DNA from: Saccostrea echinata
Lineage: Eukaryota
NCBI RefSeq assembly: GCF_033153115.1
Contig: NW_026889803.1
Span: 33,294,001-33,358,000, forward strand
Length of the DNA: 64,000 bases
Direction of reading: 5' to 3'
The notes beneath the pieces are model-generated. The model made no database searches, was not told the origin of the DNA, and saw only the letters and a list, made by a program, of their open reading frames with translations. Of this stretch, positions 680-52,200 are shown piece by piece. The position numbers and the translations under genes are program-made. The number at the start of each line of letters is the position of its first letter. The stretch's first letter is position 1.

Positions 680-1875
680 AACAAGAGCCAATGGACCACA
701 TTGCTCACCTGAACATTATGGCTAGGAAAAAAACAGAAATAAGTTCAGTATTGAAAGTTTAAATATATAAGTAGTCCACCAAACCTAAACCAACCAACCC
801 CCCAAAAAAGCAGGGAAGAGGAGGGGGTGTCATTATTTGAACAAACTTGAATCTTCACTAACTGAGGATGCTTCCATATTTCTTTGACTAATCATGGCTT
901 TATAAGATTTTTGAAGGATTTTTTTCTACATCGGTAAGTTTGATCTTCTATTGTGGCAATGTCATACCCCTGGGTTCATGATTTGAAGAAACTTGAATCT
1001 ACACTCCTGAGAATGATTCTGTATTAATATAAATAATAATGGCTTAGCTGTTCTTGAGAGGAAGAGTTTTAATGATTTTTCCTATACATTCCTTATAACT
1101 TTGGCCCCCTGTTGTGGCCCCTCCCTACCCCTGGGGTCATGATTTGAACAAATTTGAATCTACATTACCTAGGGATGCTTCTATATTAATATTACTAATC
1201 ATGGCTTTGCTCTTCTTGAGAAGATTTTTAAAGATATTTCCTATATATATTCCTATGTATAATTTGATCCCCAGTTGTGGCCTCACCCTATTCCTCAAGA
1301 TTTGAACAAACTTGAATGTACACTACCTAAGGTACTTCCTAATGAATATGACTATTCCTGGCTTTGCAGTTCTTGAGACAAAGATTTTTTTAAAAAAAAA
1401 TTTCTTATTCCTCTGTAAAACTTTAATCACCCATTGTGGCCCCACCTTACCCCAGGGGTCATGATTTTAACAAATTAGAATCTACATTTCCTGAGGATGC
1501 TTAATTATGGCTTTGCTGTTGTTAAAAGGAACATCTTTAAAGATTTTTTTCTATATATTCCTATGTAAAACTTTAATCACCCATTGTGCCCATACCCTAA
1601 CCACAGGGGTCATTATTTGAACACACTTGAATTAACACTACCTGAAGATGCTTTCATATAGATGTGATCTATCATGGCTGTGCTGTTCCTTGGAAGAAAA
1701 TTTTAAAGATTTTTCCAATGATTAAACAAATTTGAATCTACACTACCTGAGGATGTTTCCTATAAGTTTCATCTTCTCTGGCCAAGTGGTTCTTGAGAGG
1801 TAGATTTTTCAAGGATGCCTATAATTTTTTCATCAAGTTGTAATTATCTCCCCTTGTACATAGGCATAGCATTTT

Positions 1876-1907
<32 letters not shown>

Positions 1908-2025
1908 AATACTTTATGGCAAGTTTGATTGAAATTGGCATAGCAGTTCTTGAGAAGAAGTCGAAAATGTGAAAACTTTACAGACAAACAGATGGACAGA
2001 CAGACGGACACTGGACAAACTGTGG

Positions 2026-2068
<43 letters not shown>
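680..2068. mobile_element. Non-autonomous Helentron/HINE (DINE-1-like) element with internal ~165-bp satellite-like tandem repeats
   Basis: Starts aacaagagccaatggaccacattgctcacctga and ends gctcacttgagccttcggctcaggtgagctaaaaa (subterminal IR gctcacctga/tcaggtgagc plus hairpin). (gaca)n tract at ~1981-2010. Repeated unit gtggccccaccctacccctggggtcatgatttgaacaaacttgaatctacactacctgaggatgc. Confidence 0.8.
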
Positions 2069-2383
2069 CTGTTCTGACTTACAACTCACTTAGACATATC
2101 CATGGTATTCGAGATATTGATGTCCAAGATAACAAAGTTCAACTGTAATTACCGGTATCTAGTTGCATGAGCCTTCAAGGCAAATTTAACCGATTAGATT
2201 TAATAAAAAGATTAAACTTAAAATGCTCTTCATGTTTTTTTAAGGTAATGAATCAATCTCTTCAAATAAGAAAGGAAACAAGTGAAAAACTGTTCAAATA
2301 ACACCCAGATAGTTAATAACGTATTCCTATAATGAGCCAATTTGCTAAACTCAGGCCCCACAATCCTATGCTTTCAGTCCATC

Positions 2384-5300
2384 TCACAAATGTTTGTAAT
2401 TTGATATAACTTGTTCCAAGGTGGCAAACCCATCCAGAAAATCGTCCTCAGTAAGTCCATGTTTTGCATACTGGTGCACGTAAGCTCTCGCAGAAAACAT
2501 GTCCCAGGCTTTACCCACCATAGCGTCCATCTCTCCCACCGGTGACTTACTGTTCGAGATCAGAGATGCAGACTTCTCATAGTGATTGAAAGCTCTTGGC
2601 TGTACGCCTGTCATCAGAGTGGCATCTGGTGGAATCCATGGAACATAGAGGGCGGAGTCTGAGAATGGTCCAGTGTCTGCAGATACTGATTCCTTGCCTC
2701 TCAGTAACAGAAGATTGGCCAGAGAAGTGTTGTGTTGAGATCCTCTGGAACTAACTTTGACTTGCCAATCAATACCTAAAAAAAAAAAATTATTCAATAT
2801 TGATGCAGAATTCTTATAAAATCTATAATAGACTTCATAAGAGTTTTTTACACAATTATGAGTAAAACTCATAAAAATGGAAAATTATGTTTTCTATATG
2901 TATACCAGAGTTGTGCCCCTTGTCACAATATTTCTTCATTTATATACAATCTTGTGATCAGCATGACTAACCAAAAACAAAACAAAATAAAAAAAAAACA
3001 AAAACCAAGCAAAAAAACCAAAAACATCTAGATATACAAGGTAATGATGTTGAAACTTGTATAGTTGAATAGTTAAAACTGTGATATCACCTCAACATAC
3101 CCCAGGTATGCCAAATTATCGTTCAAAATACTGAATCAAATTTCCAATGTACAAGAAGACAAGAATATAGAATTATTCACGTAGTGGCAAGCACATGAAT
3201 AAATTTTAAGTAAAACTCAATTTTTTTAAAATAACTTACCCTCTTCCATTGGAGCATCAGAAATCAGCATTTGTCGGAGGTGCTTCAGCAGACCATGCCA
3301 TTGGTACGTGCTGAACTCCTGAGCCGCCGCTGACATCTGGGGAATGTTTTTGATGGTCAGGAGTTTGTAATCTGGATGTGGCACTAGATGTTCCAACATT
3401 TCACCTTTATCAAAAAATATACGTCAACAGTGTCACAAGATCACGAAAGCCTAATCTATGTGAGAACCAATCACATGTAATGCATAATCTAAGGTACAGT
3501 AAAACTTATTTATACAGAATCATCACTGCACTGACCACCCAGTTAAGTAAAGTAAAACACTTGAGAAAATTATACAATATTACATTAATATACAGCTCTA
3601 ATACTATGTAGAATTTTTACTGTGGTTCACCCTAAATGAAGCTTGGCATTCATGTACTTTAGCTAGTAGGTTCTCATTTTTTAGCAAATGTATCAAATAG
3701 GAAGCCAATAATGAATCAATCATTCCTGAAAATTAATGTTTCAGAATCAAAGGATAAAGTCATAATCAGTTGTTAAAAACCTTAATTTTTTTCTGTTCAT
3801 AAAGGAGATGGGTGAACATAGCATGCAGAAAGCCTATAGCTTCAGATATATAAAAAAACATATTCAATCTGTGAATTTAGCATTTAGAGTAAGTTCTCAT
3901 TATTGAAATTGATGAATTTATGCTGAAACAAAACTTGTTTCGAAAATTTTCTTTGCAAAAATTATTTTGTTATTAAAAAAATAATGCAGTATTCATGGTG
4001 TTCGAACCTTAGCAATAAAAATCCGGAGTATCATTTTCATTTGAGACTAACACGCTTACCACTGCGCTACGCAGCTCCTGAAATATATTGGCATTTAAAT
4101 CATGTTTGTGATATGACCCTTGACTAAATGGACTTCAAGTATATCTCGCAAAGATGCAAATGTTGCGTCATAAAAGTGTACTTTTAAGGTAAAGTGGGTC
4201 TTTGCTCCATGTTTTTGTTAACCAAAAAATGTCTATTTTTACGCAAAGTTTGAGGAAAATCTTTCAAAAAAATGGAGCGAAGACCCACTCATATCGAAAA
4301 ATTGTGTTATAATATGAGAAAATGATCCTTTTTGCCCTCTTTAGTGTGTGTATGCAATTTCTTAAGCAAATGATTTCAATCTTTGTGCAATTTTTGCAAA
4401 TTGTGGAGATTTTACATAAAGAATGCTTTAATATTAGACGAAATATCAAAGAAAATTTTGTTATAATTGAGATTTAATTTTTCACTTTCATGTTTGTTGC
4501 ACTATAGGCATTTCACTTGCCTTGTTCACCCATCTTCTTTCTAGCTGTTTTTAAATAAATAGAATTTCACCTATAGAATTGGAACAAATATCCCCTGTGA
4601 ATTTGTTAAGTGGACATGGTTGCAGCATAGTGGCTAATTTATGGCAAATGACTCTGTTAATGTCTTTGAATGAAATTTTCTTAATGCTCAAAAGTTGCTG
4701 ACATATCTTATGGAGATGGTCATTTTCCATGACAACAATCGCATCCACAGTGTGATACAACCGTGACAACGTCAAAAGAGCATTATAATTCTGCACAATG
4801 ACTTCTCCAGTTTTATATGGCCACACCACTTGGTTCATGATAAATGCATGTGGAAATTCATCTCTCAAACAACGAGTCACATATGCCCCCACTCCTGATC
4901 CTGTGCCTCCTGCAAGACTCATAAGGGACAAGAATCCTCCAAGATTATCACATTTTTCTGCTTCACGTCGGACTAATTCCATAACTGTGCTCTGACATGC
5001 TGGTCCGTGGATGCAGTAGCCATGGGCCCAGTTGTTTCCTGACCCTCGCTGCTGGCAGTAATTCTGTTTCTCTGAGTAGCTCCATCTCCCTGAACGTTTG
5101 GCATCCTGATATGTTTGAGCTATCACCTTGAAATCATTTACATTGACATAGAAAATATTTGTTAAATATGGTAATTTTAAGTCTAGTCTGGAAAAAAAAC
5201 AGATAAATTATATTCTTTCCAAAAATTTTCAGTTTTTCTGCTTATAAAAGAAAATAATCGATGAAAAAATATACTTTAATTTATGAAATTTCACTTCGAT

Positions 5301-22375: not shown

Positions 22376-25300
22376 ATGGCTCTTGTGACAGTTCAAAGAT
22401 CTCCAAGCCCCAGTAACAGCACTGCAGAATCGGTAAATGACAATTTTCTTATTGTTTTGTGGAAAAGGGAGAATGTAAATGTTCTGCAGTTTTTCAGACA
22501 CAAAGTTAAAATAACCCATACACAGGTGAAATGACACAGATAGTAGGTGAGCTTTGAGTGATACAAGGTTACTGTGTCAATTTGGAAGTATCAATATGAC
22601 ATGATAATTGATATTGACAAGAAATGGTGTGTACTGATTCACAGAAATTTGATAGTGATATGTGGAATAACAATTGTTACTATAAACAGTAAATATTACT
22701 TTTAGTTCTTTGTTTGGCTTTACTGGAAAGTCTGCTAAGAGAGTAAAAGTTTTATTGCACAAAAAGAGTTTTTGATTAAAATGAGTAATTTTTAGACAAT
22801 AGTTTTGAGGTAATGCTGGTACTTTAATGCATTTTGATATAAAGATTTTCCATTCCCTACTTTGTAATTAAGAAAAAAATCGAATTGTCAGTTTTTCTTG
22901 AAGCAAAGGACATTAATGAGAGGGGATGTCTCTCAATTTCTTTAGATGTAGCTGCAGATCTGTAGCTCACAGTCTGAAAAAAAAATGGGATGGATGAACA
23001 GAGAGCTACATGCAGTTTCAGTCATTCAAAAAAGTGAACACAATTCTCAAGTTATATCTTTATGTTTTAGCTGCCATCTCAATGTGTTACTAACTTTGTT
23101 CCTAACTGATTATTTTACTATGTACTTCAACATCATTCTCCCACAGTTGTTTTTAATGGCTCTCCTAGGCTTGATAATGAAACCATCAAAATATTGCCTG
23201 TTCATACTGCCAATTTTTCTGTCATTGGATGGGTGTTTATTTTAGATTAACAATGACAAGGAGGGGAACATAAAGATCAATATTGAAAAGGATATATGCA
23301 ATATCCTAAACCATATTTCTAAAATCTGGGGCTCATTGATTAAATTGTTATAGTTTGTCTGTATGTGGATTTTATACTCTAGGACAGGAAATATTATTCG
23401 GAGAAATATTTGTTCTGTCAGATATTTGAATTTACATAGTTTAGCATGAACAGTGCATTCAAATGCAAACAAAAGTGTTACATAATTCACTGTTCTGATA
23501 ATTCCAAATCCCAAAGCGGTTCAATTTGGTGCCAATAGTCACACATTCTTTGTAAAAGTAAACAGTTTAAATGAAAGAATATGGGTTACAAGCCACTTCG
23601 ATTAATTTTCCTGTATACTCATAAAACTGCAAAGCTTATGATAACCAAGCTTTTATACTGGAACAACAAAGGAAGAAATATTTCATTCTAATGAATTGTA
23701 ATGAGGTGAAATTTACATGCATATACCAGTAATTGTGCAGTCCTGATGAATGTATGTCTCTCCATGTTTTTGAAAGCAGATTGTGTATAGAAATTCACAT
23801 ATTTATATTTATTGCAAGGTCATACAATCCACTCTCTGTTCAATAATCAATATGATGGTGCATGAACATATTTTTCCAATTATTTTCAACAGGAGGAGGT
23901 GGTATCCGAAGATGCAGATGAAGTCGACGCAGCAGGAAAAGCAGCATCACCCCCTCGACAGCGCAGGTCAGTGACAAGTACAACGTACTCAAAGGGAAGA
24001 GGGGACTTGTTCACAGCGTAAACTATTTCTAATTTCAAGAGTGGCTGATTGTAGACTGCTTACAGTATTTGAACTCATGCTATTGGGGTGACTAGCTTAC
24101 ACATCCTGAGAAAAACTTTAGATCATATATGTTTACTGAATATTAAGGCTGTGCAATAATAATTTTCAGTTATAATCTTTAGGGTTTTCAATTAAAGGTC
24201 TTAATTATTATATAAGAGGAAACTATACAGTTCCAATTGTCCTGTTGTCTGGGTACAAGGGTGTTCACCTGAGAAGGCTGTATGTATTGTAATCTTACTC
24301 TGTTTATGTAAACGAGTGAATTAATACAAGATATTTATGGAATGCCAAGCATCCTTGTTGTCATACAGTCTTTATCCTTGTGCTCCTAAAATTTCCTTTC
24401 TGACCTAAATTTGAGAAATAGCTATAAATTAAAAAAAAAAAAATAGATCACATTAACTTACTATGCTTAGTTATCACTGGCCAAAAATAATGCACCAGTA
24501 TGGCAGTACAAAGGGTGATGGCTCTCAGCTGTCACAAGATGCATTGTAATTTTATTTCTGATATAGGGAAACACAGCTGAAATTTTGATATTATAATGTA
24601 AGGATTGAAGTACCTGGATATACTAGATTTAAAAAAAAAAATTAGACCATGAGGACCAACAGATAATATCAGTTAGCTAGTGAGGGTTCTTAATTCATTC
24701 CCTCAAAGGGACATTATTACATACTGTAAAAGAATATTTCTGGCATACAAAATGAAATGCCTCACTATAGTCTACCCCTTTTCTCTCTTCTTTCACACTA
24801 AGTGTTATATGAGATTATTTTTTTGATATATGAAATTTACCACAATTCGTATATTTCTTTCTTAAGATTTTATCTTGTATACAGCAATCTGCATATCAAA
24901 AAATGTAATCATAGAGTGAAGTGTATTGTGGCATTGAAGAAATTGCTGATTCAGAAACCAAAGATATTGAATGTAAAGATATTCTTGTAAAACTTAATCA
25001 TCAAAATCTAGTCAAGTGTCATATACATGTACTGGTTTTTATATTTTTAAAATGAGGAGGTCAAGAAGCTGGGGGACTCATCCTTACTTTAAAAAAACCT
25101 TTTACATTTTTATCTCATAAACTCATGAAAACATTTTTGTATCAATTATTTTTATTTCACAGTTGTTTCTAATCAGATCTAAAATTAGCCCAGAGTTAAA
25201 TAAAACCAAGGTAGATCTCTTTTCTTCAATTTGAAACATATGGGACAATTTCCTTAAATTGTCACGGTTGTTATTGTACCTGGGTGGGACAGGGCTTCAT

Positions 25301-31200: not shown

Positions 31201-34200
31201 GCATGCTGATTAGCCCTTTTGTTTATTTAATGTATACTCAAAGGTGTGAATTCACGGCAGGAAATTACTTCTCGCTTGAACGCACACAGCCACCTGGTCA
31301 GGTAACATGCCTCAGGCTGTTGGGGTATAGGAGATAACATGAGAAAAATATCATTTGATTGCATTGAATATGCAAGAATTAGCCCAATGTCTAAGATATA
31401 TGAACTTGTGAATTAAATTAATTAAGACAGAATCGTTTTTTTTAAAACTGAAAGTAGGAAAAAACCATAGTTGATGGTGAAAAGTGTAAAACAGTCTGCT
31501 CATTTAATCTGAATAAACTCAACTTGTATTGCACCAAAACTGAATATTATATGAGAAATGGGCTTGGAAAAAACAAAGTATGAAGTGAATTTCTTTGAAT
31601 GATGTTTTGTTCTTTAAGAGTTGACACCCTGAGGGTCAATTAAAAGCATTTAACAAGATTTGCTTCATTAAAGTTTTAAATTTTTTTTTGTTTAGATCAA
31701 AATTTTCACATGATAATATTGATAGATTATTTTCCAAATAAAGAAATTGCCAATAACAATTATTTTCTAAGTAACCCCCCCCCCCCCCCCCGAATTTTTT
31801 TTTGTTTTTTGCATGTCATACTCCAATAACACTATTCCAAACAGGAAAAAATCCTGGGATGCCTCCAACTGATAATTCTTGGTGCATGCAATAGCTAGAT
31901 TCACACCTATAATAGTTTTTAAAATAACCTAATATCTAATTCCTTGTGTAAAAAATTAAATGCATATTTTTTAATTGTCATGTCAGTGTGTGAATTGTAT
32001 TATGTTGTTTTTTCTTTTTTAAAAATGAATAATTGAAAACAGATTTATAAATTTCATTACCTTTTAATTACTTGTATACAATGTAAATAAAGATTTTAGT
32101 ATAATAATAATCAAAGTACATAAAGTAAAAGTTTATAATTGCAAAGGCACGTTAAAGAGTGCCCCCATGAAAACTTGTCGCAGAATAAAGTGCCCTTTTG
32201 ATTTTTGGATTACCATGCCCTTTTTAGGGTCTAGATTTAACACTAAAGAAAGTGAAAACATACAACTGAGGGTGTTTTTTTGACACATTTAGAACAAGTA
32301 CTTATTGTAGAAGGAAGGAAACAGGTCATTCCAAGGGAAGTTGGTCCTTATCCAGTTATGATATTCAGGACAAGTTCTCTATCTCGCTCTGCATAAAATT
32401 CATCTCAGTGCTTGGTATTCTCTTTCCTTTCCCCCCCCCCCCCCCCCCCTATTTCTTTCCATGGACTTCATCTCTTAAGTCGGTTCTGTAAATTGAGTAT
32501 ATGCCACATTGTCTAATATGAACAAATTACAAGATTATCATTCTGTGGGAGTTTTCACTCTATTTCTTTTTGTCTTGACCATATTTTCTCATCAGATACT
32601 CTCCTAATGAACAGTTTGAACTATTTTTTAAAGTATGAAATTGGTCAAGATCTTGGTAAAGCATTTTGGATATTTCAGAAATGTTAAGCACGGTTGTATT
32701 AGTTCTTAACTTGTAAACAAGGATTAAACACATAGCCTGTCAGTCATACAACCCCTACTAGGACATGCAGTGAATGACAAGATCTCTGTTCATCTTATTC
32801 ATGTAAAAATCTCTACATACAAAAAAAAGTAAATGTACCAGAAGGAATTAGTCAAAGCGAATAATGAACTTGCATCTCCTTATTGGATAAACACAGCCTG
32901 GAACCAGACATCTTTTCCTATTATATACTCTTGATATTTGTAACATTATCGTCTGAAAACAATTACATGAAAAAATAAAGAAAAGGGAATTTTTTCATCA
33001 CAAGACACATGCCCCCAGGGGTGATACCGGTAATTTTCATTTATTTATTTAAAAATTCAAGGTCATGAAGTTGCTTATTTTGTGAAATTTTCATTTCTTG
33101 AAATTTTCTGCTTATTGAAGCAGCAATATTTACCAAATACCCCCCTCCCCTCAAAAAATGATGGAGAAGTGTTTTGGTAATGACCAATTATACATTTTTA
33201 CAGCCGGATGACTTTGGTAGTTGAAACGGAAAGGTAAGAGATGGATCATAATCCATCAGGATTTACCTCATTTCGATATTGTTTTATTTTTATATCTGTA
33301 TGCCCTCAGCATGACCTGTTCTTTGTACTGTATTTTGCCGTCTTTATTAATAACGTAACTCTTCCAGGACCAAGACAGCTGCTAAGAGACTCAAGAAATT
33401 TTTCCATACGGTCCGATTCATTTCCAAATTGAGGCCGTGAGTTTCGTCTCTCTCTTTCTCATGCATGCACATGTCTCTTTCCTGTTTGCTAGCTATATAT
33501 AGTCGTTTATATTCCTTTTATGCAGTGTGTATAGAATCAATTGACATATAATGCTTTTGATATGGTGTTTTTGATGTGTTTATCTTGCAGTGTGTGTCAT
33601 TTGTATCAATTTAAATATAACGCTACATTAACAGCATGTTATCAGGGTATGAAGACTCAAGATAGATCTTTCAAGATTGACAATGCTCATTGAATGATTG
33701 TAAAGTAAAAAAAAAAAATAACAAACAATTTTTAATACTTAGGGGGTGTTCAGTTAGAAATATATGAGGCGCCGTTTTGGTATTTACTGCCAAAAAGTGA
33801 TATCACCTATTCGAATAGGTGATATCACCTATTCAATTGGTGATATCACCTATTCGAATAAGTGATATCACCTATTCAGCTTCTGAATAGGTGATATCAC
33901 CTATTTGAATAGGTGATATCACCTATTCGAATAAGTGATATCACCTATTCGAATAGGTGATATCACCTATTCAATTTGAATGAGTGATATCACCTATTCG
34001 AATAGGTGATATCACCTATTCGAATAGGTGATATCACTTATTCGAATAGGTGATATCACTTATTCGAATAGGTGATATCACTTATTCCTTTTGAATAGGT
34101 GATATCACTTATTCGAATAGGTGATATCACCTATTCAAATCAAATAGGTGATATCACCTATTCGAATAGGTGATATCACTTATTCGAATAGGTGATATCA

Positions 34201-40200: not shown

Positions 40201-43200
40201 ACCACACATATTTTTTTTATTTGGCCTAATAATATTCCATACATGATTGAGCTGTCACCTGATGAACCTTTAATTCTTTTCTATTTTTTATATGCTTTAT
40301 ATGTATATGAATTATAAGAGTAAATGTAAGTCCAAAAACTTATTTTGTGACATCAATTTCATACCTGTATTTGAGTTGCCTTTTTGAGGATATACCAGGT
40401 AGATTATTCAAAGTCGATGTACATGTAGTCTTACATGCTGCAGTTCTCTTGTACTTTAGCTATAAAATAAATTTTAATGTATACAATTGTGTAAGATGAA
40501 AGAATATTTCAAACACTGAAACAGACTGAAACCTTAACAGACCAAAACTTTAACCAAAATATCCTCTATAACATGCTCTCTGAACTGAAGAGTATGGTCA
40601 TATAATTATTGCAGTCATATGAATTTTGTTCAATGATAAATGCAGAGAGAATTTGCAGAATATATAAAGAAAGTCTTATCGTTGGGAAATAAGCAGGTCC
40701 AGTACAATCTCTTAATTTAGCTATATAGCTTGAAATTATAGCTATATAGCTTTATTAAGCTATTCAAAATAGCTTAATTTAGCTATTTATATGCAGTTTT
40801 TCACAAAAATTATTTTGGTAAGAAATAGACAAAAAGTCGCATGTATTTGACCATTCATATATGTGCTATGGGCTATCGAAACAACAAGCAAAATCAAAGA
40901 TATCTCCAACTTTGCAACTTTTGAATACTTTTAAGCAAAAGATAAATTTCTATTATTTGAGTAACTGTCCACTACCTTGTGTGCATTGAGGCATGGATAA
41001 GTATGATTGCTTCTCATTGTACTGAATTATTACCAATCAATTATCTTCTTGACCATAATTGGCCTCCTTTATAATTTCATTGAAGAAGTAACTGTATCAA
41101 TTGCGCATGTAGCCTAAAAACTTTTAGAACTTTGAGTACAAAGTCTCTTTTGTTTCTATTTTCCTAATTATCTCCCCTTGTTTAAGGGTCACAACCCTAG
41201 TTTTAGTATAAATGGAAGCCCTTGGCCCAAGGATACCCTGTGACAAATTTGACAATAATTGGCCAAAGGGTTCTTGAGTTATGGCCCATATTCTAAAAAT
41301 TTTACGCACACCGCACAAATGGCCATAGCATTAGCTCTTTGGGCCTTTGGCTCAGAAGAGCTAAAAATGAACCTCTTGCATTGAATTTTGGTTGATATTT
41401 TTTACTGTTTTTTTATGAACAATGTACAGTATTTTCACCCAAATTCCAGTATTTTGAGGACTGCTGTACAGTATTTGGGCCTAAAAATTATTACATGAAT
41501 GCAAGGAGATTTTAATGAGTGAGTTTTATAATGCATCAATTTCAGATGAGTTCAAGGTTGAGTATCATCACTGCACCAAGGTGCGACTTTTTGTGCATGC
41601 TGAGAAAAGTACACATTTAAGAAAAACTGATATAAAATAGCTAAATTAAGCTATTCTGAATATAGTTAGAATAATCTAACTGTGTCTCGGGACAAGCCCT
41701 CACCACAGTTAGAATACCTCCCATATACTTGCAATGTAGCAAATCAGAGTGGATCCACTCCGAAATGATTTTGAAGAATACAAAAGGAGTTGCATTGAAA
41801 ATAACTACCAAATTAATCATAACAAACATTTTTGAGATTGTATATGCCTTTTAACCTACAAATAAATCCATATATATACGAAAATTCAACTCATTTTCTC
41901 AACGTTTTTTCCTCGCTTCAAATTTAACGCCATGTTGACATTCGGAACTCTCTGGATTCTTCATACAAAATGCAGAGAATTCGAGTTATTGCCCGTGTTT
42001 ATTTTGCTACATTGCGAATACACAGAACAAATTCTATCGTTAAACCGGGTCCATAGGACAATATCATTTTAACGATAGAACGTTCTATCTATTCTGAATA
42101 GCTTAATAAAGCTATATAGCTAAATCAAAAGATTGTACTGGACCTGATAAGTGCTTTCAAACATTGAATACTTATAAAACTAGACCCACTGACATGCAAC
42201 AGCTTAATTTCTGTTGATAAATGAAGCGTATTCTGAACAAATTATTTACCCAAACAAAGGTGATGCTGTCACAAGATGACGTTCGTACCCATCTGACACT
42301 TACACTACTCCTCCTTAATCAGCTGGTAATAACATCATTATCCTCGAATTCAAGAAAAATCTGTTAATAAATTAGTTGTAATGATGATAACAAAACTATT
42401 CTAATCAGATACAAATGTATAATATAAGACTTCTATTTCACCAAAGAATACCCAAGAAACAGGTGACATTCTCTGACTTGTTTACCTGTACTTCGATCGA
42501 AATTCTCCTCCTACTTGCTCGCACCCAAGCTTTTATGACACTCAATTTATCCATCGTAAGTCAGAGAACCCTTCGGCTTTGTACAACTGCTTAAACTTTC
42601 CTTATACGCTTTGTGTAAACCATAAACATGCATAACCCAATACACATCTTGCATCTCCATGTGTGAGGTACCCGGAAGTTAATATTATCGAAAAATCTCG
42701 CGAGTCACGTGACGAGACTTACAGACCCTAATGCAGCCCGAATTTGCTTGGTTCCAATGAAAATGTAGATAATCTTGAGGAAGGGAGCATTCATTATTTA
42801 TTGTTGTAAAAAATGCAAATAGGTGATATCACTTATTCGAATTGGTGATATCACCTATTCAAATTGAATAGGTGATATCACTTATTCGAATAGGTGATAT
42901 CACTTATTCGAATAGGTGATATCACCTATTCAGCACGAATAGGTGATATCACCTATTCGAATAGGTGATATCACCTATTCATTTCGAATAGGTGATATCA
43001 CCTATTCGAATAAGTGATATCACCTATTCGAATAAGTGATATCACCAATTCGAATAAGTGATATCACCTATTCGAATAGGTGATATCACCTATTCAATTT
43101 GAATAGGTGATATCACTTATTCGAATAGGTGATATCACCTATTCGAATAGGTGATATCACCTATTTGAATAGGTGATATCACTTTTTGGCAGTAAATACC

Positions 43201-46200
43201 AAAACGGCGCCTCATAGAAATACATACATGTATGCATAATTTTCATTTCATTGATCATGATTTAGATTATCAATAGAGAATGTTCAGTGAATGCTAAATA
43301 GCATGGAGATATTTGTTGTAGATGATATTGATAAAAAGAATAGTGTTACTAATGGAATTTCTTGCATGAAAGACTGCTCCCTTAGGAGAAAGAATTCAAA
43401 CTGAATTTCCCATCATACTAAAAATAATACATGACAATCTTCATGTACATGTAGCAAAGTCATAGCATGATCGTCATTTATAATCTGTATAGTATCTGAG
43501 GTACATAAAAACAGACATCTAGATGTATTGGCTATGTTGATGAAGTCTGGACGTAAGATAAACCACAAATTAGTTCAAATTTTTATACCTGATAAATTAG
43601 CTGCATTAGAACGAACTTGATAAGAAAGACAGGTAATACACAACATTGTACATATATATATCCATGTCATAATTTTTTTTACGTTATCAAATTTGGGGTG
43701 TGGGAAAAATGTTCCTTTCTGAGCTTAAGCACATGGCACTTAAATACTTTGACAAAAGCAGTCAAGGTTTTTAAATCTAAGTGCAAATACATAAGCTAGA
43801 TAGTGCCAAAAATTACATTCTTGTATATACCTTATTTTTGACAAAAAGAAATTGCCTCTTTTTTGTCAAAGCTAGAACTAAGTGGCACAGATCTAAAAAA
43901 AAAAAAAAAAAAAAAAAAAAATTCTCATAATGCTTTGTACACTTTTTCTGTAATCTAATCATGTCTTGCTATAATTAAACAATATATTCTATTCTGGTAT
44001 TTATATATATGATTATTACCTATATACCATTATTATAAGGGTGATGGGACAAATACTCTACAGGATCATGATCTAATATTAAAGGTAGAAATAAGTTTGT
44101 GCATTCTTTTGTTCAATGACTGTTACAATTATCATATACTTGAAAACAAATTAAAAAGTCTCTGTGTCTATCTGAGAGAGAAAAAAATCAATAAATCTGA
44201 CGCATTATTCATTACTCTGTATTATATCACATGAAGTCTGATTCACTTTTCTGTCAAGTTTTTATAATTATTTTCTTTATGTATGATGTTTAAATACTTG
44301 CTTACCTCATAATAACTTTTTTCTTCATTTTCTAGTTTTAGTGAGAGTTACTTTACAGTCAAAGGGGCGGCACTAATTCTGCCACAGAATGAACAAGAGT
44401 CAGGATATGCTTCCAAGCGGATAACAAAGAACTGCGACAGTAAGACTTAAAATTGTATTAAAAATCTTAATTATAGTAATTTTTTTCCTTCTTGACATTT
44501 TAATTAAAGTCACAGGTTTCTTTCATGAAAAAAAGTAGAGACTTGGTTTGATATTACTGTTCAAAATAAATGTCATTAAACTAGCTGATACAATGAATGC
44601 ATGGGAAATCTAAAAATTTAAGATTTGTTGATATAGAATTATAATTTGTTTGAATATAAAATAGCACTTCTTTTGAGCTGAAATAGACAAACTTGAATAT
44701 CTACATGTATGTTGCAAATATATGTACCATGATTAAAAAATATATAGATAAATTTATTTTCCAATTATGAGAGCTCTAGGTAAATCTTGAGGGTGTAGAC
44801 CTCTTGTTTTCTACACAATATCATATTGTCAGTGTTGACACAATGATAATTATCACTAATTAACACATGTTTGATTACAGACGAGATACAGAGTCATCTG
44901 CAGTCGATGTTTTACCTGTTAAGACCACAGGACACAATAAAAATAGTGAGTGTTGATTTCACCATAAGTCTGTCACCTTAGATGTTCAGCTGGCACCGTC
45001 TGTTACATTATAGTGGGTGTAGTCTAGGGCATTGAAACCTTGTCATATTTTTCATAAACGCTAGGCACTTTTACTAACCATACATTTTGTGTGCTTGTGC
45101 AAGTAAACAAGTTATACATGTATTTTCATAATGAATATATGCATTTTCAAAAAGAGTGAACAATTAATATGTATTTCAAGATATTACAGTATGTCATCCA
45201 TTTAATGATTTGGTGAATGGCTTTGACAACATGAAATATGTTTGGATTAATTATAATTTTAAATGTTTGTAACATAGATTATTCATTTTACAGATACATG
45301 TTAAAAAAAGATAAAGTGACTGTGTAATATTGTTGAAGTCAAATCTAGCGTATTTATTTCTTAACATAGATTTATAGTACCGGTACTTACTCCTTTGGTC
45401 TCACCTAACTGATGAAGCTTGAAAATAAAGTATATGTAATTAATTAATTCATCAGGACCAAGTAGCTAATAGCTAGAAATTGAATATCCTAATCACATTG
45501 TAGGCTGTGAGACTGGAAACTACGAATCCCACTGGTAACCCACGGTACATGGCGGTGGTGTCATGTGTGGGTCGCCAGGACGAGGAGGAGTCGGTGATAT
45601 TGGGGATTGACTGTCAGGAGAAAGCCACCATAGGGCTGGTATACCCCATCTTCTCTGACACCTCCATCAAACTCGATGGCGATGGGTAGGTTTACTGACT
45701 TTGGTCCTTTGTATTTTCGCTTTTATTTTCACATTTTTTCAACTCATTATCACATTTAATTCTCATGTGTCAGCTGGTACTTGTTCACATTATTATTAAC
45801 ATTGTATTACATATTGGGTTAACATAAGTCTTTTGGTATAAAAATTGGAACACAGTGTGCATACAAATCAAAGGGGACAGATAAACTTGTTTTTGGGGAG
45901 AGGATACTTCTTTTTTTTTATACTTAAGTGCCAGCTACATCAATGTCATCTATAAATGCGGTTAATGTCAGGACATATATTTAATGTGTTAATGTCAGTA
46001 CATTTATTTGATGTGATTTTCTTCTTTTCCTTTATAGTGGTTTTATTGTGTCCTCAGATGGCAAGCTACATGTCTTCAAACCGGTGTCTGTGCAGGCCAT
46101 GTGGTAAGAAACTCGTACTGTACACAGAATAGGTAGAGTGTACAGGCAATGTGGTAAGAAACTCGTACTGTACACAGAATAGGTAGAGTGTACAGGCCAT

Positions 46201-49200
46201 GTGGTAAGAAACTCGTACTGTACACAGAATAGGTAGAGTGTACAGGCAATGTGGTAAATAAACTTATACTATACCCAGAATAGGTAGAATCTGTATAGGC
46301 CCCATAGTAATAAACTCATACTCAACAAATAATAGTAAGAGTGTTCAGGCAATGTGGTAAGAAACTTGATTGTACACAGAATAGGTAGAAAAAAGTTACT
46401 TAATATTCATTTCACAACAGAAGGAGAATTTTGTAGCTGAACTCTTTAGATAAATTTATTAAAGTTAAAACCTGAATGTTTGATATTCTTCGTTATCAGT
46501 CTTTAGATTTTGCAATGTACACATGCAGTTATCATGAAAATGACATAAATGCAGGGTTTTGATGGTTTCAGGTCAGCTTTACAGAGTCTCAATAAGATTG
46601 TTAAAATGGCTCGTGACAATCGCCACATTCCTGCAGGCTTGTCACATACTTGGACAGGGTATTATGAATCTTCTAGTCTAAGATCCAGTCTCACCCAAAT
46701 CACAGAATGGTGAGATTTCGTTGATTTTTGCATTCATTCAACTTTTTATTTACTTTTCAATTGACAACATTTTTATATGTAAAGGATATTAACTTCATTT
46801 TTTCCAGCTTTTTATCTATTATTTGAAGTGTTCTCAAATCTATGTAAATTTCTAGAATGGGCTACCTGTACAGAAATGTCACATTTTTGTGATAAAATAC
46901 ATCCAAACAAACACTTTTTGTACTTTTAAGAACGATGTTAGATCAGATAGATGGCATATGTATTTCTTTCATGTCCTTTCAGGCACACTAATGAAGATGT
47001 AGAGTTTTTCAAGTCAATGCCAGTTTTTGTTGAAACTGATGAGTAAGTATTCCATAAATACATATACGGTAAATTTCATTTTTTTCTATTATCATAGATG
47101 AAAATCTTGTAAAAGGTTCAAGAAATATGTATTTTCTCCACAATTTTTCAGCTGATCTGAGTTTGATATGTGTAATCTACATGCATGTGTATATCTGTAA
47201 CATTCTGTGATTTTAGTGAGGAGTCACAGTTTAAGAAGAGACTGAATGTAGAGCTGAAGAATGTCATGATGAGAATGGATCTAGAGGAAGCTACATGTAA
47301 AGAGGTGAGTGTAATTAGTACAAATAATTAGTATGCATAATGAAAGTACATGAGTCACAGAGGCAAGACACACAAATCACTTCAGATGTAAACCTTGCAC
47401 TACTTAAAAACTAAAGTGCTTCTAACAATACTTAGGTACGTATATTAAGTATTTATCATTGAGTTTTATGGAGTAGTTTGCAATAATTGAAAGCAAGAAG
47501 ATAAAGAGTTTCACAGAAAATAAATTTTTAAAAATGTTTATCCCAGATACGTCAAGAGCTTGAGGAAGCTATGGGGACGGATTTATCGGAGTACAAGAGT
47601 TATGTTGACCAGGAAATGATGAGGATTTTGGGACAGATGGACTCGCCAACTAAAATTGAGGACTACCTCTACCTCGGTTCAGAGTGGAATGCTTCCAACA
47701 TGGAAGAACTCCACAACAATGGGTAAATTTTACTGGTATTTTAAAGGTGTTACACTGCCTTAATGAAGCCATGATAATCATGTCACAGGAAGTCAAGTTT
47801 AGTAAGATTTCCAGACAAAAAATGGTTGAATTCTCACCTGTGAAGATTACACACTGAAGAAAGAGATTTTTTGTCATCTATAGATAAGTGGAATGTAGTT
47901 CTTGATAAATATAATGTTAAATTCATTTTTGAAATAGATTATAATGAAATATTTATAAAAAAATTCATTAAAGAAATTCATATATTGGATAAAAATCATA
48001 GAGAATCTCTTCTCTGTGCAAAACATGCATGAAAAGGAAACAGAATTCTGTACACATATGTATATAAAAGCCAGTCTATTTAACAGCACTTTCTCTGTGT
48101 TTTAGTGTGGGACACATTCTAAATGTAAGCAGAGAGATTGACAACTTTTTCCCTGGATGTTTCGTGTACCAGAACATCCGTGAATGGGATTCTGAAGAAA
48201 CGGACCTCATGAAGCACTGGGACAAAACATTTATGTTCATCAAGGAGGCTAGGTAAATCATGCTTGACAATTTATATATTTACCCCTGCAACAATGTTGT
48301 TGGGGGGTTGAACTGGAATCACAGTGTGCACCTGTCTTTTTATTTGTTTTGAACTCTGGTTAATAACAGTGTTTTGGTTGATTCCAAGCTTATCAATTTT
48401 GATTTCTATAACAAATTTGCATACATGGGAGAATGCCCCCATGGGAGGGGAAATATAAATCCTAGTCAGCAGTTCTAGTTCTTAATAAGTGTGACAGTAC
48501 ACACACTTTTTTGAAATACACATGTATATATTTCTTTGCTTATTATAAAGACCATGTACATCTGTATAGAGAATATACAGGTTAAGTTTTCCTTAGAAAG
48601 AAAGTATCTTTTCCAGGAATCGAAATTCAAAAGTTTTAGTCCATTGCAAGATGGGGATCAGCAGATCTGCATCTACTGTAAGTTTCAGTATAACTTCCCA
48701 GACAATTTTACTACTTTTATATTATTAGCACTGTCAAAGTTGATTTCACCATTAAGTTATGAAGAATAGAGCTTGTATATTCAGCCTTAACTTGTTCATA
48801 CTTAGGTGATGGCGTACCTTATGAAGGAGCATAGGATGTCGAGACAGGAAGCGTATGATTACGTAAAGGAGAAACGTAGCTGTATAATGCCAAACTCCGC
48901 CTTCTGGAAACAGCTGGAAACTTACGAAGGCATACTGCAAGCCAAGTAAGTTGTTATGTTTACAGTTACTTTTTAATGGCATTAATATTTGAAAAATCAT
49001 ATCAGTGCAATTTTAAAACAAGCACACAAGGTATGGCAAAACAGACTGAAGACAACAGTAAAATTACATTAGGTGTAACTTTTATTCAGAGCAAAGATTT
49101 ATGAAAAAGAGGTTGTGAAATAACTGGGGGTATGTATACTAAGGTATATCTCCACATTTTGGCTGTCTGGATATTGTGTTGATATTTGTTGATGATAATA

Positions 49201-52200
49201 ATAATTAAGGTACTTTTACTCCCCTTAATCTTTCCTTGACACTTAATGCACCAATTCCTTTTGTATTTTATTTTGGGAAAATTTCAACAAATAAATCCTA
49301 TTTGTTGTATGATGTCATTTGTAAACCTGTTTTATAATTTGATTTCAGCCTTCATTTTGCCAAATGGAGCATTTTGTTTCACATATAATTGATTAGTCTC
49401 AGGCTGACACTTTTTTTTTGTTCCTATACCCAATGCATCAACATAAATGTGAAAATTTTTTAAATCAGATCACCATATCTTTAATTTAGAGCATAGTGTT
49501 TCACAATACACCTCTTGATTTAATCCAATGAAATTGTTTTTAGAAATCTTTTCAAAATATAAATTTCCTTTGGCTTCATAGCATACAAGTATTTTAAGGG
49601 GATTTGAATATGAAGCCCCATAATATTTTTGATTTACAGTGTATTTTTTTTTTATTTTGATAAATGTTGATATAATAAATACTTGTATCTATTGAATAAA
49701 AAAAAAAATAAATAAAGTAAAAATTTAAAGCCTACCTTGAGTGTTTTGAGAAAAAAATATTGAAAATGATTTTTAAATGTAAACATATATATACCCATGA
49801 TTAATTTTGAAAAATTGTAGGAGAAAACTTGAGCTGTTTAAAAGCAAGTCCCAACAAGACTTACTGGATGCTTCCATGGAGGAAGATGATGTGGGCTTCA
49901 ACAGACATCATCATCATCACCTCTTCACGGAGACTGACATGACCAGGTGTCATAGTATGCCAGGTGGCCTGGATAATTCTGTATTTTATCATCCTGGTAC
50001 GTGTACTGTTCAGTGCTGTATTACAATTATAGCCGGTCAGTTGGTTCAGTCCTCAGCCAGTTGGTAAACCAATGGTTTCCAACCAATATCTTAGGAATTA
50101 GCTTGGCAGTACATGTAATCTAATTTTGGAAACATGTTGGCCATGTAAGAAGATGACTTCTATGGATTTACTGAATTATCCAATAAGGTCAAAGGTTGCA
50201 TGGATTTTGACTTAACCACATTAATATATTTCCTTCAGTATCTTGAGAACAATGAAATTAAACAATATTATGTATACGTCTAGTATATACATACATGTAA
50301 ATGGATTAGACAATGGGCAAAGTTGCTTCTTTAAGTCCTTTTCATATGAAAACCATTTGATAATCTTAAAGCTCAGTTCATAGTTGTCAAGGAACTTTTT
50401 GTTTCATAGTTGTCAAACTTCATCTTTAGTTTTTTTTTCTACTGTGCTTGCCGTATGTTTGTACATTTTTGTCACTATTCTTGATACATCTTTGTCACAA
50501 TTCTTGACAACAGTAGTTTGTGAATTACACTCCTATTCACAGATTATGAACCATGCCACATGGAACCAGATATGGAGGCTGAATCCAGAAGTGCTGACTC
50601 AGCAGAAGACTCCCTGTCTGATCATCCCTCCCCCAAACCTGAAGAAGAGGAAGCCTCAAAGAAAGATCTGGCCTACTACATAGGGGAGGAAGATGATGGT
50701 CACCAGTCGGAAGGCATGGAAGAGATAGATTGGAACAAGCCAATGTCATCTTCACTGCCAACATTCAAAATTATTAAGCCAGATGAGAGCTGGATAAGGG
50801 GAGAAGCTGAGAAAGAAGAAGAAAGTGAAGAGAAGAAGTCTGATGTGGAAGTGAAGGTCATTGCTGCTGATAATGGAGAAATGTCAAAACAGAGTCCAGA
50901 GGAGGAAGAGAAAGTGTCCAAATCCGATGATAGTGCTATGGAAACTAACAGTCCCTTTGTTCATTTGAAAGAAAACATTCCCTGGAATCCAGGGACTGTG
51001 AAAAAGACAAAAGAAAACATTGAAGGCAAAAAGACTGAACCTTTGGTAGGAGGAGAGAGCTTCATTCCTGATCAGATAATTGTGATAAAGGGTGCAGAGA
51101 ATGTTGGTGCAAAACCGGATCTGAAGCTGGATCTGGCTGGAGTTACAGTGTCAGAGAGCTCGGATTATGGTAGGGACACATGCACTCCTACATCAGAGAG
51201 TAGCAGAAATTCCGGATCTGTGTATGAAAAAGAGGAAATTCCTTTGGCACCTGGAACTGTAAAAAGAACTCTCAAGGAAATAGAGGAAAAGCATGGGTAG
51301 AGTATTTCTTTTTATGCCACCAGAACATTTATGTTTTGTATCTCATGCTAATTTGCTTATTCCAAAGTTACAGAGTAAATCAAGAGACTTATATTTTAGA
51401 TATTCTTTAGGTTGTAGTCTACATGAAGTGTATTTGGTTAATGTGCATTTTTTTCTTTTTTTTTGTGAAATAGGTTTTTGAGAAATAAGGACCTACCTCC
51501 ACTTCCACTTCAGAGATCAGAAAGTTTAAAGAGTCCCAGAGACAAGGTGAGACGTCGGCGTATGGACCGTGAACGTCGTAAGACCTGTAACCCAGTCCTA
51601 GTCAGTTCCCCCAGAAGTCCTGAGGAGGAGGTGGATTTTGAATGGAGGAGACACAGTACAGGGGAAACGTTCTCTTCCAAGCCTGGTACAGAGGAGAAAT
51701 CACCAGAAACCAAACAAGCTGTGTACAAACTGATGGGGGAAGAAATTACTGTAGAAAAGGGCATTGTGAGGAAGCAGAGAGAAGGTAAATATAAGGGAGG
51801 GCATCCTACACAGTCAGAAAACAAGTGAATAAATTTTTAATATGAGTTTAAGGTGGGGGTGGTATTTAAGTTCAATTTAGCATATAGGAATCCATTGACT
51901 GATTTTCTTGCATAGTGATATTTCATAGTTACTCAAATACTGGATAAGACTAAATGATATGTATGCTAGCAGACACTGTTCATGGCATATTTACAGGAAA
52001 ATTATATTTTATGAAACTTAAAATACATGTATAATCTATATGTACATCCATTTTTATACCCCACACAACTAGTTGCGGGGGGTATAATGTTTTTGACCCG
52101 TCAGTCAGTCAGTCAGTCAGTCAGTCCGTCATGCCTGTTTTTTTGTCAGCGCAACTCCTCCTAAACTGCTGCACAGAATTTCATCAAACTTTGCAGATAT

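Follow-up and report, generated by a model that had tools for sequence, protein, structure and literature searches.

A candidate non-autonomous IS3EU/GingerRoot-type transposon with a spliced transcription unit in slingshot intron 2 of Saccostrea echinata

A transposable element of 9.45 kb with intact ends was found in intron 2 of the slingshot phosphatase gene (SSH) in a 64,000-nucleotide stretch of the genome of the oyster Saccostrea echinata (GCF_033153115.1, contig NW_026889803.1, positions 33,294,001 to 33,358,000 of the forward strand; hereafter the window, numbered from its first letter). Its interior is a multi-exon unit spliced on the minus strand, antisense to SSH. The reading we prefer, with a probability of roughly 0.55, is that the element is a non-autonomous transposon of the IS3EU/GingerRoot type, and that the spliced, likely non-coding unit likely moved with it into the intron.

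The two ends, at 33763 and 43216, are those of a single element and read TATG...CATA. The outermost 50 bp on the two sides (33763-33812 and 43167-43216) are exact inverted complements, mismatches beginning only at position 51, and GAAATA immediately flanks both ends as a 6-bp target-site duplication; equal flanking 6-mers have a chance of 4-7 × 10−4. Both ends extend inward into arrays of a 22-bp palindromic unit, which are likely docking sites for a transposase. With up to 3 mismatches allowed, the 64-kb window contains the terminal 33 bp a single time on each strand; thus there are no inner ends, and neither array is a complete small element. Further inward, both ends contain mirrored copies of an 18-bp word, after which comes another, shorter match; the right copy contains what we take to be promoter-like words. 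The longest exact match in controls was 14 bp in 1,192 comparisons within the window and 16 bp in 1,000 shuffles.

33757..33762, unstranded: left target-site duplication GAAATA (from the sequence)
33763..33812, plus strand: left terminal inverted repeat, 50 bp exact, starting TATGA (from the sequence)
33797..34260, unstranded: left array of ~20 palindromic 22-bp units (from the sequence)
34297..34593, plus strand: left inner module, a head-to-tail duplicate (70% alike) that carries the left mirror motif at 34466-34534
42654..42729, minus strand: right copy of the mirror motif, with the 18-bp exact match to the left copy (from the sequence)
42818..43182, unstranded: right array of ~16 palindromic 22-bp units (from the sequence)
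43167..43216, minus strand: right terminal inverted repeat (from the sequence)
43217..43222, unstranded: right target-site duplication GAAATA (from the sequence)
23893..23966, plus strand: SSH exon 2, the upstream intron boundary (frame continuous with exon 3)
44336..44439, plus strand: SSH exon 3, the downstream intron boundary (later exons match SSH families)

The host gene was identified by Pfam matches to PH_SSH1-like (E 7e-14), DEK_C and DSPc, with three of its five exons matching. By its splice sites, intron 2 spans 23967-44335 and measures 20,369 bp, 9,454 bp of which are the element; minus the element, ~10,909 bp are left, a factor of 1.87. The original prediction, made from the letters of the window, had described perfect 50-bp termini with an exact GAAATA duplication, no long open reading frame and a near doubling of the intron. 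The termini and the duplication were verified directly in the sequence, the longest stop-to-stop frame within the element is 102 aa, and the intron is nearly doubled as claimed; the two ends are very probably not independent small elements, given the single occurrence of the terminal 33 bp per strand. At 33204-33233 on the plus strand, 530 bp ahead of the element, 30 nucleotides that contain an ATG lie between AG and GTAAGA and keep the SSH frame between exons 2 and 3; they are possibly a cassette or an alternative first exon, the use of which would alter the intron numbering.

Splice-like signals are present in the element's backbone on the minus strand, and the corresponding joints were observed in public sequencing data. 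Part of the interior is contained in 13 public runs from 5 studies, none of them on record as RNA, and four of these, X1, X2, X6 and X10 (the run labels are guesses), were aligned at 80% likeness. The joints 36640|36801, 36928|37374 and 37483|40365 occur in X1, X2 and X6 (41-75 million letters) at summed depths of 217-924, and none of the three was seen in X10 (730 million letters, from another organism). Repeat-free bins outside the exons, e.g., 39400-39684, are at depths of 6-16. The joints correspond to GT-AG, GC-AG and GT-AG introns on the minus strand; the strand of the transcript is taken from these signals, and the contigs give neither level nor strand. The largest joint removes 2,881 bp, in which an entire nested element is included, and its breakpoints differ from that element's ends, so that it represents splicing and not an empty site. 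X1, X2 and X6 are likely RNA sequencing runs, as small size and exon-shaped depth suggest for X6. Depth is also raised across 42250-42810, where the start of the unit is predicted. G+C content is 0.37-0.45 in the exons (0.32 in the last) vs 0.24-0.33 in the introns.

42250..42800, minus strand: region in which the start and the 5′ exon or exons are predicted (CpG-rich, elevated depth; donors 42485 and 42249)
40365..40459, minus strand: internal exon, donor by joint, acceptor predicted from sequence and depth
37375..37483, minus strand: GC-donor internal exon, bounded by joints on both sides
36801..36929, minus strand: internal exon, both ends by joints (in one contig apparently longer, starting at 37007)
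35980..36640, minus strand: last exon, acceptor by spliced joint; its 3′ end is placed approximately, where depth falls near an ATTAAA at 35998

The earlier description of the element as non-coding probably stands as regards protein, but the interior proves to be a spliced unit. The description of that interior as decayed nested cargo is not supported, since ~5.3 of the 9.45 kb are not nested repeat and contain the multi-exon unit. The nested pieces themselves were borne out, with a 150-bp foldback as an addition, and all together sum to ~4.2 kb; both large nested elements lie in introns of the unit.

37666..40226, unstranded: GGCC-ended nested element with a TAA duplication, presumably Harbinger-like, entirely within the 2,881-bp intron
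38483..39170, unstranded: piece that we take to be HINE-like, containing repeats of 138-156 bp and an ACAG microsatellite; its right limit is approximate
39506..40022, minus strand: one arm of an element, 75% like 31067-31569 of the complete copy at 31065-32245
40694..42146, unstranded: CAGG-ended nested element with a 5-bp ATAAG duplication, including a repeat end at 41147-41367
35776..35926, unstranded: 150-bp foldback resembling a miniature inverted-repeat transposable element, in the 3′ extension of the transcript, spanned by run contigs

The complete copy at 31065-32245 is 1.18 kb long and also lies in SSH intron 2; its ends match exactly over 14 bp (TAGTG...), and its duplication, AAGAAAG, has 7 bp. 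A high-depth X2 contig skips 38449-39993, joining 38448 to 39994 of the window, which indicates other copies of the Harbinger-like family without the HINE-like piece and most of the arm. A contig of X6 (record 27) bridges the backbone and the end of the Harbinger-like element at 37665 with 209 + 54 bases, so the nested state is not private to the window.

The spliced transcript is longer than 200 nucleotides, its open reading frames are at the level of shuffled sequence and no relatives were found in the frames searched; it is likely non-coding and resembles a long non-coding RNA (lncRNA). In all exon chains tried, the longest stop-free frame is 63-74 codons (shuffles: median 61, 95th percentile 92) and the longest ATG frame 49-58 codons (median 42, 95th percentile 75). 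Pfam gave nothing credible in the six read-through frames of 34270-42810, including no HECT match, and returned one match to a plant-virus family at E 0.1. A word search in one of the three minus-strand frames of 35984-37483 retrieved 0 of 886 candidates of 275-875 aa and 0 of 168 candidates of 30-274 aa. In the 5′ region, one frame gave two phmmer hits, both to tandem-repeat proteins and dismissed as artefacts, the second yielded no candidate among proteins of 105-2000 aa, and the third, examined by Pfam alone, nothing credible. All 85 Rfam matches fell below the gathering score and lay on palindromic stretches, and the folding of five exon pieces gave z from −0.39 to 0.51. Codon scores of the spliced exons were near the intron level, a weak test.

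The termini point to a known lineage. The original prediction had taken TAY...RTA termini with 6-bp duplications as the signature of IS3EU; TA...TA ends with a 6-bp duplication are indeed its hallmark, duplications there being usually of 6 bp, and they are also found in GingerRoot, with which IS3EU forms a single lineage (PMC10045372, PMC6839031; the literature is cited from excerpts throughout). Inverted repeats in IS3EU/GingerRoot exceed 30 bp (PMC12730594), as do the 50 exact bp plus arrays here, and the length of 9.45 kb lies within the 3.9-12.9 kb of GingerRoot copies. Out of 77 such copies, 22 hold intron-containing gene fragments, and most of these lack the DDE region, which only 6 retain (PMC6839031). 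Rust-fungus IS3EU members have TAYGG...CCRTA ends and hold transposase and alpha-kinase genes in opposite orientations (PMC12730594). In the present element, in contrast, no transposase was found, and its end begins TATGA. Known passengers in IS3EU/GingerRoot are protein genes or fragments (alpha-kinase, TET/JBP), whereas here the passenger is spliced, apparently abundant and likely protein-free, and the excerpts of PMC10045372, PMC6839031 and PMC12730594 mention no long palindromic arrays like those found here. The GingerRoot paper includes a section headed "Dearth of Expression" (PMC6839031). With regard to oysters, an IS3EU-1_CGi transposase, its suffix read as C. gigas, stands in a supplementary alignment (PMC10045372), and two C. 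gigas satellites are IS3EU-related (PMC8268682); IS3EU structure and function have been described as largely unexplored (PMC11934779).

No IS3- or integrase-like DDE transposase was detected in the element by Pfam, and short core motifs gave one chance-like match; thus it is not an autonomous member. Because neither a transposase nor a partner was found, membership is read from the ends, and from these the element quite probably works as a non-autonomous IS3EU/GingerRoot transposon. Related ends that carry the same palindrome and read TATGG are present in three public contigs (L001, L003 and L004). L003 contains a complete short element of 333 bp (140-472), ~80% like the window arrays, at which no matching duplication was seen; L001 contains a long right end (1789-2168), also ~80% like the arrays, and the right inner region of the element in the window has marginal similarity to it (88/500 and 41/2,000 shuffles). 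In L004, animal-like DNA inside a bacterial assembly, the related end lies at 452-526; its inward open reading frame of 62 aa is ended by the contig edge and has no Pfam match. Outside that end, at 774-5094, a 906-codon frame with UCH and Ulp1 peptidase matches stands beside a 570-codon frame without a Pfam match, which we take to be MULE/NOF-like. The 22-bp repeat word is absent from the C. gigas satellitome supplement (PMC8268682). The exact end of the element in the window is absent from the metagenome and viral collections, and the 22-bp palindrome from viral contigs. A fourth contig, L002, was rejected as a relative, having a single chance-like palindrome. Polintons/Mavericks, with AG...CT ends and polymerase and integrase genes, were likewise rejected, since the ends here are TA...TA and no such genes are present.

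The ends and the body of the element differ in CpG content. The observed/expected (o/e) CpG ratio reaches 1.26 over the predicted first exon, 0.95 and 1.23 over the two arrays and 0.83 over the left inner region. The four spliced exons, with 3 CpG where 30 are expected, have a ratio of 0.10; the introns between them have 0.36, and those of SSH 0.11-0.37. At the array junctions, 21 of 25 CpGs counted are intact, beside host intron at 0.23-0.37. In oysters, gene-body methylation, intronic as well as exonic, goes with a low CpG o/e (PMC3840415), and by this link the CpG-poor body resembles a long-transcribed unit. The ends look new to the SSH intron or protected, and the whole agrees with a body that is old and transcribed, flanked by ends that are young or protected. 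Judged from sequence, CpG-intact ends within a CpG-poor host intron would favour recent movement as one unit.

The runs also bear on copy number. Over the joint 36640|36801, one X1 contig (record 2; 641 nt, depth 403) has one other letter and two gaps relative to the window, and another (record 3; depth 35) has 25 other letters in ~318 nt, the two depths summing to the joint depth of 438.5. At the same joint, X2 record 18 differs from the window in 26 of 332 letters. X1 and X2 thus each contain a near-identical and a ~92%-identical form. The ~8% difference between the forms suggests a paralogue, and at least two copies of the unit are likely to exist. Among the eight X10 pieces listed, matches of 80-85% occur at 36730-36961 and 42447-42730, both exon regions, which may hint at exon-biased conservation.

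Under the preferred reading, a transposase made elsewhere in the genome would bind the ends and the 22-bp palindromes and move the whole 9.45 kb. A CpG-rich promoter just inside the right array would drive RNA inward, antisense to SSH, and splicing would remove the nested elements from that RNA, for which reason the unit could tolerate them. The unit itself may be the dead descendant of an inward-facing gene of an autonomous ancestor; this is the least sure step, and a captured host gene is nearly as likely an origin as a dead accessory gene. By default, the RNA is read as coming from an element promoter that still fires, and any function of it is putative.

Several observations weigh against the preferred reading. 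The TATGA start is one base off TAYGG, the 97 bp adjoining the right array are CpG-poor (0.32), and the mirror motif is marginal by local alignment score, its value being reached in 2 of 300 shuffles. Neither an empty GAAATA site nor a second full-length copy was seen, and Pfam and core-motif searches found no transposase or autonomous partner. No link between 42250-42810 and the exon ending at 40459 appears among the 15 joints listed (2,740 more exist), and X6 holds the joints despite its guessed label "DNA?". The chance that both large insertions landed in introns is ~0.3, and the nested state is common to other samples, as expected of an old fixed insertion. Finally, since several differences from the window are common to X1, X2 and X6 (e.g., 35323, 35906, 37522 and 34646), the abundant expressed form may be the other allele here or a very close sister locus.

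A possible but clearly less probable alternative is capture in place by the gap filling described for Pack-TIRs, in which a short element inserted and made the duplication and a break inside that element was then repaired by copying a host lncRNA locus together with its old intronic insertions; on this view the 9.45 kb were never transposed together. Single-copy animal Pack-TIRs arise mainly in this way (PMC8277862), L003 provides a complete 333-bp element whose ends are related, a CpG-old body between CpG-young ends agrees with it, and the second, 92%-identical form could be the parent. However, captured pieces have a median of 224 bp (PMC8277862) vs ~8.5 kb here, and the window is nearest the high-depth form. 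The mirrored motif common to the predicted start region and the left end suggests that the start region is native to the element. As to a host parent, the interior has no match in the rest of the 64-kb window.

Somewhat less probable still is an old fixed insertion, in which the element landed long ago in SSH, received the nested elements there and has retained CpG-rich ends because these are kept unmethylated. Samples carrying two organism labels share the nested junctions with 0-4% difference, an amount that allelic variation could produce, and in a third organism (X10 records 8 and 15) two exon regions match at 80-85%. Against this age stand the 50 exact bases at both ends with an intact duplication, and the intact CpGs of the array junctions beside a CpG-poor host intron; moreover, the left end lies beyond the 3′ end of the transcript, where protection is less expected.

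An unlikely possibility is that of a mobile lncRNA gene: a protein-less IS3EU-type family that keeps a selected spliced RNA, exon-conserved across oysters, and carries it to new loci. Were this true, the RNA would act for the element, for example in recruiting or restraining the transposase or silencing, or else for the host, and would here have been placed antisense in a housekeeping phosphatase gene.

That the unit encodes a short peptide is improbable. One example is a 58-codon ATG frame that is open across two junctions if the donor at 42486 joins the 40459 exon, yet its first junction is predicted only, upstream ATGs precede it, its length is inside the shuffle range, and the codon scores of the exons are near those of introns, weak as that test is. 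Two independent small elements flanking a resident host lncRNA gene by chance are very improbable, since, although L003 shows that short relatives can possess both ends, no terminal repeat bounds either array on its inner side, matching 6-bp flanks would arise by chance at ~5 × 10−4, and the mirrored motif lies inside both ends.

Gene-carrying elements with terminal inverted repeats and transposon-derived lncRNAs (PMC3636048, PMC10648671, PMC11264136) are each already known. The Drosophila Pack-TIR Ssk-FB4 is likewise non-autonomous, possibly multicopy, and contains a spliced multi-exon unit between long modular ends, but it has a known protein-coding parent and 9-10-bp duplications (PMC8277862); here neither parent nor protein was found, and the ends look much younger than the body. 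As in transposon-derived lncRNAs, a spliced non-coding RNA likely started from transposon sequence; unlike in those, all exons here are inside one element with intact ends and a duplication, and the lncRNA-like unit could therefore still be moved. In the literature searched, no description was found of a complete spliced, protein-free unit enclosed by intact IS3EU-type ends, or of an oyster or lncRNA-carrying element with terminal inverted repeats; such elements may be catalogued in Repbase Reports or subscription papers. If an intact-ended IS3EU member does contain a working splicing unit, this would be one way in which whole lncRNA genes are born, duplicated and placed antisense; if the RNA is merely leftover promoter activity, the element is a well-preserved example and little more. 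The presence or absence of 9.46 kb in SSH intron 2 offers a clean test case vs SSH expression and splicing.

Other repeats were observed in the window. A 50-bp tandem repeat at 46089-46389 comprises six copies of an SSH exon end with its donor site, i.e., repeated potential donors, and a 180-bp repeat array (52142-53155; 5.6 copies at 95%) follows a GTCA microsatellite in a later SSH intron. A 168-bp satellite array of 6.7 copies lies at 27109-28229 and presumably resembles the oyster Cg170/HindIII satellite.

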